Assembly (NCBI GenBank): GCA_049517655.1
Contig: JBEKRQ010000002.1
Location: 193,059 to 257,058, forward strand
DNA: 64,000 nucleotides
DNA from: Verrucomicrobiota bacterium
Lineage (GTDB): Bacteria; Verrucomicrobiota; Verrucomicrobiia; Limisphaerales; UBA11358
Direction of reading: 5' to 3'
The position numbers and the translations under genes were made by a program. Positions 55,920 through 60,851 of this stretch are shown here, piece by piece (position 1 is the first letter of the stretch; every line of letters begins with the position of its first letter). The notes beneath the pieces are model-generated. The model worked only from the letters and a program-made list of their open reading frames with translations. It was not told the origin of the DNA and ran no database searches.

Positions 55920-56105
55920 AGCCCGATTTTCACGCAAAGACACAAAGACGGAAAGCTAATTTGCAACGACACCTAATTTGAAGAAACTTCCAACTCATTT
56001 TGAATTTCACGCTTGGAGAAATCCCAAATCGGAGGAAATTTGACTTGGGGATTGCAATTTGTGCTTGCAATTTGTGCTTGTATAAGCTTTTCTACATAAA
56101 TTGGC

Positions 56106-59100
56106 ATGTCGTTTAAGTTTGTTGCCAGACGATTATTCGGTGAACGCTTTGTTGCCATCGCGTGCGCGTTGGTCTTGCTCCCGTTAGCGGCACACGCCCA
56201 AAATTCCGGCAGACAGTTTTTGCAGGGTCATGTGCAGCCGGCAGTGGCGCGTTTGCATTTACAGCCATTGGGCAGGCTTTCAGCCACACAACGGCTGAAT
56301 CTGGCGATAGGTCTGCCCTTGAGAAATCAACAGGCGCTCGACAATCTGCTCCAGCAAATCTACGACCCGGCAAGTTCCAATTACCGTCATTACCTGACGC
56401 CGGAACAGTTCACAGAGCAGTTTGGTCCGACTGAGGAGGATTATCAGGCGGTTATCACATTCATGGAATCGAAGGGTCTGACAGTAACCTACCGACATCC
56501 GAACCGGGTGGTGCTGGACGTGAGCGGGTCGGTGGCGGACATAGAGAAGGTGTTTCATGTAAGGATGCAGGTCTACCAGCATCCGACGGAAGCACGGACA
56601 TTTTACACGCCGGACGTTGAACCTTCACTGGACTTGACCGTTCCAATTTTGCACATCAGCGGATTGGACAACTTTGCCCTGCCGCGTCCTTTGCATGTTG
56701 TTAGACCAATTCCCGACCATCAGGCGACGAGCGTGACACCGAATTCCGGTTCCGGGCCGGGCGGCGCTTATATGGGGAATGATTTTCGGGCGGCTTACGC
56801 TCCGGGAGTTACGTTGAATGGTTCTGGGCAAATCGTGGGACTGTTGGAGTTTGACGGTTATTACGCAAATGACATCACAACTTACGAAAACGCAGCCGGG
56901 CTGCCTGCCGTCACAGTGGCAAATGTATTATTGGATGGGTTCAATGGATCCGCGGGCAGCAATAACGTGGAGGTAGCTTTGGACATTGAGATGGCCATCT
57001 CAATGGCACCTGGATTGTCCAAAGTGATTGTGTATGAAGCCGGGCCGACTGGCAATCCGAATGACATTTTGAACCGCATGGTAACAGACAATCAGGCCAA
57101 GCAACTTAGTTCCTCTTGGGGATGGTTGCCTTTCGACCCAACCACTGACAAGATCTTTCAAGAGTTTGCCGCTCAGGGACAGTCGTTCTTTCAAGCTTCC
57201 GGCGACTGGGATGCTTTTATAGGGGCGCCTTGGTCGCCGATGGATAACCCGTATATCACGCTTGTGGGCGGGACAACTTTGACAATGACCGGCGCAGTAA
57301 CCACCGCACGCTATTGTCACACGGCGACATTGCTGCCCAATGGGAAGGTGTTGGTTGCAGGAGGCACACACACGGGGTCGGATGCTATTTCTGACGCGGA
57401 ACTGTACGATCCAGCCACCGGGATATGGACGAATACCGGTGTGTTGAACACCTCACGCGGTTATCACACGGCGACATTGCTGCCCAATGGGCAGGTGTTG
57501 GTCGCGGGTGGCTACAACGGCGGTTCTCTTTCCAGCGCGGAGCTATACGATCCGTCCACCGGGAAGTGGACAGCGACCGGCTCGATGACCAGCGGACACG
57601 CTGGTCACACGGCGACGTTGCTCCCCAATGGGAAGGTGCTGGTCGCAGGGGACTTCTATAGCGGGACGAGCGCAGAGCTATACAATCCGGCCACCGGGAC
57701 ATGGACGGCGACCGGCTCGCTGAACACCGGACGCTATGACTATGATCAAACGGCACCGTTGCTGCCCAATGGGAAGGTGCTGGTCGCGGGGGGCGTTGGC
57801 GGCGGTAACAGTGCGGAGTTATACGATCCAGCCACCGGGACGTGGACGCTGACCGGTGCAATGAACACCGCACGCTTTAGTCACACAACGATCTTGCTGC
57901 CCAATGGGAAGGTGCTGGTCGCGGGGGGCTGGAATAGTGGCCCTCTTTCCAGTGTGGAACTATACGATCCGGCTACCGGCACCTGGACAACGGCTAACGC
58001 AATGAACACCGCATGCTATGGCCGTACAGCTACGTCGCTGCCAAATGGGCAGGTGCTGGTCGCGGGTGGTTGTAACTATCAGTCTGTTTCCAGCGCGGAG
58101 TTGTATAATCCAACCACCGGAACATGGACAACGACCGCCGCGATGGCCACCCCACGTTATTTTCACACAGCGACGCCGCTGACCAATGGGCAGGTGTTGG
58201 TTGTGGGTGGTTTTGACGGAAGTTACGGAGGTTTTAGTGGCCGTTCTCTTTCCAGCGCGGAGCTATACGATCCATCCACCGAGAAGTGGACAGCGACCAG
58301 TGCGCTGAACGGTGCCAGTGGTTCTTGGGTATCGGAAACCACTTGGAATTGGGGCGGTGGAACTGGCACCGGCGGTGGGATCAGCACCAATTATTCAATC
58401 CCTAGCTGGCAACAAGACATCAACATGACGGCCAACCACGGTTCGACCACCATGCGGAACGTTCCGGACGTGGCTCTGACCGCTGATAACGTTTATGTCA
58501 TCTACAACAACGGCTTCGGCGGAGTCTTCGGCGGCACCAGTTGCGCAACGCCCCTGTGGGCGGCTTTTACCGCGCTGGTCAATCAACAAGCCGTGGCGGC
58601 TGGCAAGCCAACGGTTGGTTTTATCAATCCGGCGGTCTATGCCATTGGCAAAAGCACGAACTATACTGCGGATTTTCACGATATCACCACCGGCAACAAT
58701 ACAAGTCCCAGCAGCCCCCAAAATTTCTATGCCGTTCCTAGTTACGACCTCTGCACCGGATGGGGCACGCCCGCTGGGCAAAATTTAATTAACGATTTGG
58801 CCGAGTTGTGCGATTGGCTGATCATCACGCCGACAACAGGCTTCACTTCCATCGGTGGGATTGGTGGACCGTTCACTATCACTTCGCAAAGCTTGTCGTT
58901 GACTAACGCGGGAACAAATTTACTGACTTGGACTCTGGTCAACACATCCCTTTGGCTCAATGCCTCGTCCAGCGGCGGCACACTGACGCCTGGTGGACCG
59001 GCAACCACCGTGACCGTGAGTCTAAACTCGGCAGCCAGTAATCTGCTGGTGGGGACATACAACGCAACGGTGTGGTTCACCAATCTAAACAACGGTATCG

Positions 59101-60851
59101 GGCAAGGTCGCCAGTTCAGTTTGTTGGTGATCAGCCCGCCAATAATTACGATACAACCGACCAATCAAGCGGTGCTAAAAGGGGCGACGGCGACATTCGC
59201 GGTGGAAGCCACTGGCGATTTGCCGTTGTATTACCAGTGGCGGGATAACGGAACAAACCTGACCGATGGAGGTAATATTTCCGGTTCGACGACCACTAAT
59301 CTGATCATCAGCAGTGTGTCTTCAGCGAATGTGGGAACTTACAGTGTCATCGTGAGCAACGTTGCCGGTATAGTGACTAGTTCCAATGCCGTGCTGACAG
59401 TGAATCCGCCGCCGCCCTGCGCGCCGGTGTCTTCCGGGATGGTCAGTTGGTGGCCTGGGGAAGGCAATGCCAATGACATTGTGGACACCAACAACGGGAC
59501 GCTGGTAGGTGGCGTGAGCTATGTCGCCGGCGAAGTGGGCCAGGCGTTCTTGTTCGACGGAACGAGTGGCTGCGTTTCCATCCCTGATTCGCCTTCACTG
59601 GACTCATTTACCACAAGCATGACCATTGAGCTGTGGATGAAGGCCGGCCAGACGAACGTCAATGCGGATTGGAAGGGACTTGTCACCAAGGGGAATTCCT
59701 CCTGGCGACTGATGGCTACGACTTTTGCCAAAACAGTTTATGTGGCTTTCTCCGGTGTTAGCCCCCCGGACTTGTCTGGCACACGGAATGTCAACGATGG
59801 CCAGTGGCATCATGTGGCTGCCGTTTACGATGGAACTAACATGTTCCTCTATGTGGACGGCACGCTGGATGTTTCGCAGCCGGCCACGGGTTTGATTGCC
59901 CAAGACACCGATCCCATGTGCATTGGAGCAGACTCGAAGGCATATGTTCCCAGTTGTGGTTGTGCTGAACTGGGGTATTTCTTCAACGGGTTGGTTGACG
60001 AGGCGTCCATCTACAATCTGGCGCTGACGGCCTCGGAAATTCAGGCCATATACGCGGCAGGCAGCGGGGGTAAATGCTATACGCCCACTGCGCCGGTGAT
60101 CGTAACACAGCCGACGAACCAGACCGTGGCGGTGGGCGGCACGGCAACATTCACGGTGGTAGCCGGCGGCACACCGTCGCCGGGGTATCAATGGAATTTC
60201 AACGGGACGAATATCGATGCAGCGACGAATGCGACGCTGACGCTGACTAACGTGCAGTTCAGCCAGGCGGGCAATTATGCGGTGCTGGTGACGAACCTGC
60301 TTGGTTCGGTGCTCAGTTCTAATGCGGTGCTGACGGTGACGCTGGATCATTTCGCCTGGAACCCCATACCGTCGCCGCGGTTCGTCAATACGCCGTTTTC
60401 CGTCATCATCCAGGCGCAGGACATGACCAATGGCCTGTTCACCAACTTTACCGGCCCCGCCATTTTGGGAACAACCAATGGCGTCGCCGTCACCCCGCCG
60501 GTTTCCGGCAGTTTTGTTCAAGGGGTATGGACCGGCACGGTGGTGATTTCGCAGACGGCTTCGAATTTGGTGTTGCGAGCTGACGACGGGCTCGGGCACT
60601 TCGGCTTGGCCAACCCGATCAATGTCATCAATCTGCCTAATCTGGGGATGATGCATTCCGGCAATATTGCCTTGTTCATGTGGCCGGTCGGCTACTCGGG
60701 ATTCGTGCTGGAGACTTCGGGCAACTTGTCGCCGCCAGCCACATGGGTAGTGGTGCCCGATGTTCCAATCCAGATTGGCGATCAATACCTGCTGCCGCTG
60801 GAAATGAGCGGGACCAATGGTTTCTATCGCCTGTGGTTCACCGGCCCTTAA
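56106..60851 (+). CDS. secreted multidomain protein: pro-kumamolisin activation domain + S53 sedolisin peptidase interrupted by a 7-blade Kelch propeller + Ig-like + LamG + Ig-like + C-terminal beta domains
   Basis: Signal peptide MSFKFVARRLFGERFVAIACALVLLPLAAHA. The propeptide (LNLAIGLPLRNQQALDNLLQQIYDPASSNYRHYLTPEQF) is followed by S53 motifs (EVALDIEMA, SGDWDA, GGTSCATPLWAA). Seven repeats of type HTATLLPNGKVLVAGG...AELYDPATGTWT, two Ig I-set-like modules and a LamG module (...DGQWHHVAAVYDGTNMFLYVDG). Confidence 0.8.
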   Translation: MSFKFVARRLFGERFVAIACALVLLPLAAHAQNSGRQFLQGHVQPAVARLHLQPLGRLSATQRLNLAIGLPLRNQQALDNLLQQIYDPASSNYRHYLTPEQFTEQFGPTEEDYQAVITFMESKGLTVTYRHPNRVVLDVSGSVADIEKVFHVRMQVYQHPTEARTFYTPDVEPSLDLTVPILHISGLDNFALPRPLHVVRPIPDHQATSVTPNSGSGPGGAYMGNDFRAAYAPGVTLNGSGQIVGLLEFDGYYANDITTYENAAGLPAVTVANVLLDGFNGSAGSNNVEVALDIEMAISMAPGLSKVIVYEAGPTGNPNDILNRMVTDNQAKQLSSSWGWLPFDPTTDKIFQEFAAQGQSFFQASGDWDAFIGAPWSPMDNPYITLVGGTTLTMTGAVTTARYCHTATLLPNGKVLVAGGTHTGSDAISDAELYDPATGIWTNTGVLNTSRGYHTATLLPNGQVLVAGGYNGGSLSSAELYDPSTGKWTATGSMTSGHAGHTATLLPNGKVLVAGDFYSGTSAELYNPATGTWTATGSLNTGRYDYDQTAPLLPNGKVLVAGGVGGGNSAELYDPATGTWTLTGAMNTARFSHTTILLPNGKVLVAGGWNSGPLSSVELYDPATGTWTTANAMNTACYGRTATSLPNGQVLVAGGCNYQSVSSAELYNPTTGTWTTTAAMATPRYFHTATPLTNGQVLVVGGFDGSYGGFSGRSLSSAELYDPSTEKWTATSALNGASGSWVSETTWNWGGGTGTGGGISTNYSIPSWQQDINMTANHGSTTMRNVPDVALTADNVYVIYNNGFGGVFGGTSCATPLWAAFTALVNQQAVAAGKPTVGFINPAVYAIGKSTNYTADFHDITTGNNTSPSSPQNFYAVPSYDLCTGWGTPAGQNLINDLAELCDWLIITPTTGFTSIGGIGGPFTITSQSLSLTNAGTNLLTWTLVNTSLWLNASSSGGTLTPGGPATTVTVSLNSAASNLLVGTYNATVWFTNLNNGIGQGRQFSLLVISPPIITIQPTNQAVLKGATATFAVEATGDLPLYYQWRDNGTNLTDGGNISGSTTTNLIISSVSSANVGTYSVIVSNVAGIVTSSNAVLTVNPPPPCAPVSSGMVSWWPGEGNANDIVDTNNGTLVGGVSYVAGEVGQAFLFDGTSGCVSIPDSPSLDSFTTSMTIELWMKAGQTNVNADWKGLVTKGNSSWRLMATTFAKTVYVAFSGVSPPDLSGTRNVNDGQWHHVAAVYDGTNMFLYVDGTLDVSQPATGLIAQDTDPMCIGADSKAYVPSCGCAELGYFFNGLVDEASIYNLALTASEIQAIYAAGSGGKCYTPTAPVIVTQPTNQTVAVGGTATFTVVAGGTPSPGYQWNFNGTNIDAATNATLTLTNVQFSQAGNYAVLVTNLLGSVLSSNAVLTVTLDHFAWNPIPSPRFVNTPFSVIIQAQDMTNGLFTNFTGPAILGTTNGVAVTPPVSGSFVQGVWTGTVVISQTASNLVLRADDGLGHFGLANPINVINLPNLGMMHSGNIALFMWPVGYSGFVLETSGNLSPPATWVVVPDVPIQIGDQYLLPLEMSGTNGFYRLWFTGP
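57294..58310 (+). repeat. seven tandem Kelch-motif coding repeats (~141-150 bp each) with high DNA-level similarity
   Basis: Recurrent cacacggcgac(a/g)ttgctgcccaatggg(a/c)aggtg(c/t)tggt(c/t)gc(a/g)gg blocks, for example at about 57319, 57466, 57604, 57750, 57885, 58030 and 58165. Confidence 0.9.

Follow-up and report, generated by a model that had tools for sequence, protein, structure and literature searches.

The closest described relatives of the protein considered here are kumamolisin and its zymogen pro-kumamolisin (MEROPS family S53; PDB 1t1e, 1gt9 and 1sio). The protein itself (P0001), a 1581-residue exported multidomain pro-sedolisin, is encoded by a single open reading frame (ORF) on the plus strand at positions 56106..60851 of a 64,000-nucleotide stretch of DNA from a soil Verrucomicrobiota bacterium of the order Limisphaerales (GenBank assembly GCA_049517655.1, contig JBEKRQ010000002.1), the whole of which is termed the window below. 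The pro-domain, subtilisin-like fold, catalytic triad, oxyanion Asp and calcium site of kumamolisin can all be aligned with the window protein. The difference lies between the motifs CGGT and ETVWN, which are separated by ∼11 residues in kumamolisin, whereas in the window protein 340 extra residues, predicted to form a seven-bladed Kelch beta-propeller, are found at this point.

Nested accessory domains are already known in peptidases of clan SB, to which both S53 and the S8 subtilases belong. In S8 enzymes such as plant SBT3, C5a peptidase, lactocepin and P57, a PA domain of ∼130 residues interrupts the catalytic domain upstream of the catalytic Ser, as does the 340-residue, seven-blade Kelch guest of the window protein, and these PA domains are reported to lie near the active-site cleft, where they bind or restrict substrate (PMC5177683). 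No Pfam match to PF02225 or PF00082 was detected in the window protein, which is an analogue of the PA subtilases and not a member of that group. The S8 PA domain is the only nested guest in the clan that is known to us or mentioned in the literature searched, and a full-text literature search found no paper on a Kelch propeller nested in a sedolisin.

Two further systems invite comparison. In the prolyl oligopeptidase family (S9) a seven-bladed beta-propeller covers the active site, so that a serine peptidase is combined with a propeller able to limit access, as is proposed here for the window protein; the S9 enzymes, however, have an alpha/beta hydrolase fold, and their lid, located between two segments of the catalytic domain, is a non-Kelch propeller. 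The nearest counterparts in domain content are secreted S53 proteins (P0010, P0020, P0056, P0441 and others) from Verrucomicrobiota metagenomes of similar habitats, which contain the same domain families arranged in tandem and are unannotated or named "kelch repeat-containing protein". In these the hairpin is uninterrupted (e.g., TSGPGGSWVSEAVWNW) and one or two Kelch propellers follow the intact catalytic domain, in contrast to the nested propeller of the window protein.

Split of the S53 catalytic domain

The gene is predicted from its sequence to encode an exported zymogen of the sedolisin/kumamolisin type whose catalytic domain is intact even though it is split by a complete seven-bladed Kelch propeller. 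In a phmmer comparison against all PDB chains, residues 13-385 of 1t1e aligned with ORF residues 35-394 and 1t1e residues 386-543 with ORF residues 737-898; neighbouring residues of 1t1e thus lie ∼340 residues apart in the ORF, indicating that the S53 fold is interrupted at a single point. The interruption falls at the tip of a surface beta-hairpin coming after the VGGT strand, 3′ of the oxyanion Asp and 5′ of the catalytic Ser, and both ends of the propeller run between the two hairpin strands, one exiting and the other re-entering the protease. The hairpin of the window protein reads VGGTTLTMTG-[340 aa]-ASGSWVSETTWNW, while the uninterrupted hairpins of two S53 paralogues encoded in the same genome read VGGTTLTMSG-AGGSWLSETVWNW and VGGTTLSTSG-PGGSWLSETVWNW. 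As the paralogous hairpins are contiguous, the insert represents a pure addition at the hairpin tip, with nothing deleted.

The N-terminal part of the catalytic domain (residues 200-396; 56703..57293) ends in the outgoing hairpin strand V387-G396 and contains the catalytic residues Glu289 (56970-56972) and Asp293 (56982-56984), both in the motif VEVALDIE, together with Asp367 (57204-57206) in QASGD, the oxyanion-hole Asp that corresponds to kumamolisin D164. The C-terminal part (residues 737-905; 58314..58820), which aligns to 1t1e 386-543 with E=3.8e-24, begins with the returning strand ASGSWVSETTWNW (A737-W749) and holds the catalytic Ser812 in GGTSCATP (58539-58541), the Glu-Asp-Ser triad being aligned with the kumamolisin positions, as well as the calcium-site residues Asp859 and Asp881. 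At the sequence level the calcium-site motifs FHD859ITTGNN and YD881LCTGWG align to FHDITEGNN and WDPCTGLG of kumamolisin. E289, D293, D367 and S812 are invariant in an alignment of 48 sequences. Upstream, a Sec signal peptide (residues 1-31; 56106..56198) is predicted by inspection of the sequence, which displays a basic n-region, a hydrophobic core and an A-x-A cleavage site (AHA|Q), and is followed by a pro-kumamolisin activation domain (residues 55-190; 56268..56675; Pfam PF09286, E=5.7e-29) that aligns to the 1t1e propeptide.

A structural model of residues 32-910 was generated with AlphaFold2 from the same number of aligned sequences (48), and gave a mean predicted local distance difference test score (pLDDT) of 78.7, exceeding 90 in the pro-domain, and a predicted template modelling score of 0.64. 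Foldseek matched this model to 1t1e across the split (E=1.7e-19; template modelling (TM) score 0.74, normalised to the target), as expected of a subtilisin-like fold, and the S53 fold is accordingly predicted to close around its guest. An earlier note on this DNA, prepared from the letters alone, had proposed that a propeller of seven Kelch repeats is nested in the S53 catalytic domain at 57294-58310, with the catalytic Ser block downstream of it, and had named domain searches and an AlphaFold model as checks. This proposal is confirmed: the insert found here (57294-58313) agrees essentially exactly, the Ser block lies 3′ of it, the fold closes around the insert in the model, and the S53 domain, which is not truncated, is completed only after the Kelch region, with all catalytic residues kept here and in four other nested lineages (see below).

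The S53 catalytic domain of this clade goes undetected by every Pfam model, Peptidase_S8 among them, and a Pfam scan lists just the pro-domain and the accessory domains. Routine annotation ("Pro-kuma_activ + Kelch + Ig") therefore hides the nesting, and it is for the same reason that such proteins bear source names like "kelch repeat-containing protein".

The Kelch propeller and its repeats

The insert (A397-G736, 340 residues; 57294..58313) is absent from both paralogues and is recognised by several Kelch models of Pfam. Kelch_1 matches six stretches over residues ∼397-735 (E=2.5e-54; 180.8 bits against a cut-off of 20.1), and the scores of Kelch_2, Kelch_3, Kelch_4 and Kelch_6 are likewise well over their cut-offs. 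The number of repeats is seven, as the insert contains seven ELY(D/N)P...TWT motifs and seven HTATLLPNG...VLVAGG motifs, and seven units in register can be recognised in the DNA, where the repeats have a period of 141 nt, 6.6 copies and 71% matches. Blades 1 and 2 correspond to residues 397-447 (57294..57446) and 448-494 (57447..57587), blade 3, which has the shortest B-C loop, to residues 495-539 (57588..57722), blades 4, 5 and 6 to residues 540-586 (57723..57863), 587-633 (57864..58004) and 634-680 (58005..58145), and blade 7, with the longest B-C loop, to residues 681-736 (58146..58313). In the AlphaFold2 model the insert comprises 27 strands in seven groups, approximating seven blades of four strands, and Foldseek aligned the model with solved Kelch domains, which are six-bladed, at TM scores of 0.74-0.78 (target-normalised).

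The variable positions of the blades cluster in the D-A and B-C loops, which share one face of a Kelch propeller. The only strongly conserved positions of the insert are core positions that recur in every blade, and positional conservation between lineages was not found in the insert loops. Between the nested lineages the Kelch part is 54-66% identical and the N-terminal half of the S53 domain 52-77%; since the two are about equally conserved, purifying selection is indicated for the Kelch part.

The earlier note had also taken the close similarity of the repeats as a sign of recent expansion or concerted evolution. This evolutionary reading is not supported. Sequence identity between blades is 48-70% within the protein and 40-75% from one protein to another, and no register signal (blade i resembling blade i) was detected in any pair of lineages. 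The proportion of identical codons among identical residues within the gene, 0.63, strongly exceeds a naive expectation of 0.34, which by itself would favour recent amplification of the blades or concerted evolution, but it is equalled by the values obtained between genes (0.55-0.64) and in the S53 parts of homologues (0.40-0.65), and hence gives no sign of recent amplification or of gene-wide concerted evolution. On a smaller scale, a 70-nt tract at the end of blade 2 (57519..57588) and its counterpart at the end of blade 7 (58239-58308) are 90% identical, with 16 of 17 codons the same, and look like a candidate for local gene conversion.

Distribution, origin and genetic context of the nested layout

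The exact protein is encoded on 58 public contigs (NCBI, JGI and ENA), and there are also near-identical variants of full length. Four further metagenomic lineages possess the same layout, represented by P0100, P0118, P0240/P0389 and P0332/P0390, each with seven blades, the same hairpin and all catalytic motifs kept. The domains located C-terminal to the protease differ among the nested lineages, so the conserved unit can be described as a pro-domain followed by S53 [Kelch7], and the gene neighbourhood of P0118 is unrelated to that in the window.

Homologue searches with residues 200-905 and with the junction region (residues 690-800) were dominated by multi-Kelch proteins, from which nested members were sorted by script. 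Among the first 239 proteins retrieved, the gap between the N-half and the C-half of the S53 domain was 0-19 residues in 131 pairings, and larger gaps occurred solely in the four nested proteins and in two others that contain a tandem pair of S53 domains; S53 proteins beyond the first 239 were checked only as to whether a Kelch repeat immediately precedes the C-half. By one or other of these criteria ∼270 other S53 proteins lack the insert, which is also absent from the best 150 cluster representatives apart from two nested fragments. P0122 (1919 residues) and P0123 (2003 residues) apparently contain two S53 catalytic domains per polypeptide, their C-halves lying ∼910 residues apart and their summed score being doubled.

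A junction-alignment scan of GTDB species genomes yielded 80 S53 loci, none of them nested, although one (L039) encodes a C-terminal Kelch; these loci place the clade among Verrucomicrobiota/Limisphaerales metagenome-assembled genomes of peat, palsa, bog and soil origin. When 40 relatives (24 of the same genus), 400 genomes of the same order and 400 of the same phylum were searched genome-wide, with two candidates per genome scored in the two 400-genome searches, only the window's own gene was identified as nested. In all, 865 other Verrucomicrobiota genomes were sampled, none with the insert. The layout is therefore rare, with no instance other than the window's gene in the sampled genomes of relatives and five nested lineages in the homologue survey.

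The genome that contains the window (2.29 Mb, seven contigs, 96% complete) possesses three S53 genes. The two paralogues, C1:698220-700229 and C3:223835-226282, are 56-71% identical by segment to the nested protein, and in both the N- and C-halves are contiguous. No Kelch repeats were found in this genome outside the nested gene. The genome is small compared with most of those of its congeners; the same-genus genomes G001-G024 are 1.8-5.9 Mb in size, most of them 3 Mb or more. Congeners encode free-standing Kelch proteins that are up to 71% identical to the insert (e.g., G017:C4:116003-117442).

The motif ETTWN is found in 5/5 nested lineages and in 18/256 other S53 proteins. Constraining the nested proteins to one clade yielded a slightly better likelihood and was not rejected (approximately unbiased test, p=0.49). 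The simplest reading of these sequence comparisons is that a large S53 family of the Verrucomicrobiota received a single insertion in one of its paralogues, now represented in at least five lineages. At the left junction the host sequence TTLTMTG is similar to GTWTxTG, the outer strand of a blade, 11-15 of 21 nt being alike, and insert and repeat unit are in phase; such microhomology hints at a homology-assisted insertion. P0100 and the window protein share 89% identity in the pro-domain (75% identical codons among identical residues) compared with 68% in the catalytic N-half, and this closer match of the pro-domain is a hint of recombination between S53 genes.

In the window the gene is the only ORF on the plus strand at this locus, being flanked by minus-strand ORFs that encode a TrpB-like pyridoxal phosphate enzyme and an NAD(P) transhydrogenase beta subunit. 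Just 5′ of its ATG, at 56052-56080, is a perfect tandem repeat of the 13-mer TTGCAATTTGTGC (2.2 copies) that could be part of a promoter or operator. The S53 domain is followed by ∼680 residues of Ig, LamG and BACON-like domains. A BACON-like Ig domain (residues 926-992; 58881..59081) has a weak match to PF19190 (E=0.0012); a domain of this kind is common 3′ of the catalytic domain in this S53 clade, and the same family is precomputed for many homologues. It is succeeded by an Ig-like domain (Pfam Ig_2/Ig_3; residues 1016-1096; 59151..59393), a Laminin_G_3/concanavalin-like lectin domain (PF13385, E=2e-24; residues 1151-1313; 59556..60044), an Ig_3/I-set domain (PF13927, E=9.4e-27; residues 1330-1404; 60093..60317) and a C-terminal region (60318..60848) that ends in ...NGFYRLWFTGP and has no Pfam or NCBIfam match. 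A conserved C-terminal domain of ∼70 residues, with the consensus LxWNxxxGLxYQVQYxTNLxxTNWxxLG...PQRFYR and a tail of the form ...(P/N)xRFYR(L/V)...., recurs in the S53 paralogues, in many homologues and also in L101, an S8-PA protease from a congener; in the window protein it has diverged (NGFYRLWFTGP). This tail domain, for which there were zero matches among Pfam and NCBIfam models, may represent a lineage-specific sorting or anchoring signal.

Function of the nested propeller

By analogy with the nested PA domains, the propeller probably functions as a substrate- or ligand-binding exosite or as an access filter. The suggestion of the earlier note that it could gate or target the active site is plausible. 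We give a probability of roughly 0.6 to the view that the gene encodes an intact, split S53 zymogen in which the propeller, acquired by a single insertion, acts in this manner beside the substrate groove. The protein would be secreted and its pro-domain removed in an acid-triggered step, after which the enzyme would cleave proteins. All four strands of a blade would be contained within each sequence repeat, so that the ring would close without an interlocking ("velcro") arrangement; instead, the host hairpin would clamp blades 1 and 7 and so mount the propeller on the protease. The variable D-A and B-C loops would then hold or select a macromolecular, perhaps glycosylated, substrate beside the groove, with further attachment given by the C-terminal BACON-like, Ig and LamG domains. 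The mutations D179H and D210Q were made in a kumamolisin-As design to reshape substrate binding (PMC5935664), and in the phmmer alignment to 1t1e these positions fall ∼17 residues N-terminal and 13 residues C-terminal to the insertion point, respectively. The base of the hairpin would thus lie at the substrate site, suggesting that the propeller probably stands beside the groove. The TPP1 structure paper does not describe the equivalent hairpin.

S8 subtilases of related genomes offer a further comparison. In L096, from a genome of the same order, the PA domain is located between ITVANSIDN and SSSRGP, and in L101, from a genome of the same genus, it is flanked by APGVNILSALP and YLDGTSMA and closely precedes the catalytic Ser; two different PA insertion sites are thereby represented among the S8 subtilases of this order. 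From their sequences, the Kelch guest of S53 and the PA guest of L096 possibly occupy the same inter-strand connection.

Several results weigh against the exosite interpretation or its components. The correspondence with L096 receives a probability of only 8.5% from hhalign, which places S53 GSTTLRNVPDVA on SSSRGP..KPDLAAPG of S8. The S53 tree is poorly resolved, and a free search yields no clade of nested proteins. The variable loops are only marginally enriched in aromatic residues (0.16 compared with a background of 0.11), the junction residues have pLDDT values below 50 in the AlphaFold2 model, and related S53 enzymes (P0010, P0441 and others) carry Kelch propellers appended at the C-terminus. 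Since these relatives indicate that Kelch and S53 domains can cooperate without nesting, they favour general targeting over precise gating.

The last two of these points are also among the grounds for the main competing explanation, that the propeller is a general anchoring or targeting module, binding a cell-surface or matrix polymer or mediating oligomerisation, and that its nested position is accidental and leaves active-site access unaffected. The S53 proteins of related bacteria that have a C-terminal Kelch belong to different S53 clades (in the tree, 10 of the 12 with the tandem layout group in a supported clade of their own), so nesting is not needed for such a role, and because the termini of a propeller are adjacent, any hairpin tip could take one. 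However, the exact insertion site and the seven blades have persisted in five lineages whose C-terminal domains were exchanged freely, substrate-site positions lie on either side of the hairpin in the sequence, and in S8 subtilases a nested PA domain does influence how substrate is bound (PMC5177683). Simple anchoring is in our judgement a possible but rather doubtful account of the propeller.

The propeller might also be an enzyme in its own right, either a copper radical oxidase of the galactose-oxidase/GlxA type or a NanM-like mutarotase, which would render the protein bifunctional. Galactose oxidase is likewise seven-bladed, many of the Kelch homologues are named "N-acetylneuraminic acid mutarotase" in their sources, and the GlxA model of NCBIfam (NF052501) matches with E=3.2e-26. 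The score of this match is 91.7 bits against an equivalog cut-off of 800, as would be obtained from generic Kelch similarity, and all blades are near-consensus and lack conserved candidate active-site or loop residues, making a second catalytic activity highly improbable. Even less credence can be given to an artefact or a decaying gene, i.e., a chimeric assembly across the repeats or an S53 pseudo-enzyme broken by repeat expansion. Assembly across tandem repeats can go wrong, and this genome consists of seven contigs, but the recovery of the exact protein on 58 contigs, with near-identical full-length variants, excludes an assembly artefact; moreover, the repeat units, at ∼70% identity in DNA, are too divergent for collapse or misjoining, and the layout is common to four other lineages at 54-89% identity per region. 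Decay is contradicted by the 1581 open codons and by the retention of all catalytic and calcium-site residues.

Beyond the interpretation of the propeller as an exosite or access filter in this one family, a broader and unlikely scenario may be considered, in which the hairpin after the oxyanion Asp of sedolisins is a hot spot at which entire beta-propellers have been acquired again and again, in more than one phylum, giving rise to an unrecognised "propeller-capped" class of S53 enzymes in which the propeller would sit over the groove and determine which macromolecules, or peptides of which size, gain access to the active site. If that were true, propeller-capped S53 enzymes would represent a functional convergence with the propeller lid of prolyl oligopeptidase and with the S8 PA domain.

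A seven-blade propeller in the S53 hairpin carries the principle of the nested guest from S8 to its acid-active sister family. Nested insertions of this kind reveal which loops tolerate large guests and how specificity may be gained without altering the catalytic machinery, and natural controls are available in the insert-free paralogues of the same genome and in the relatives with an appended propeller. S53 enzymes, in the form of kumamolisin derivatives, have been engineered as therapeutic and industrial acid proteases, and the hairpin is therefore a candidate site at which binding modules could be grafted.

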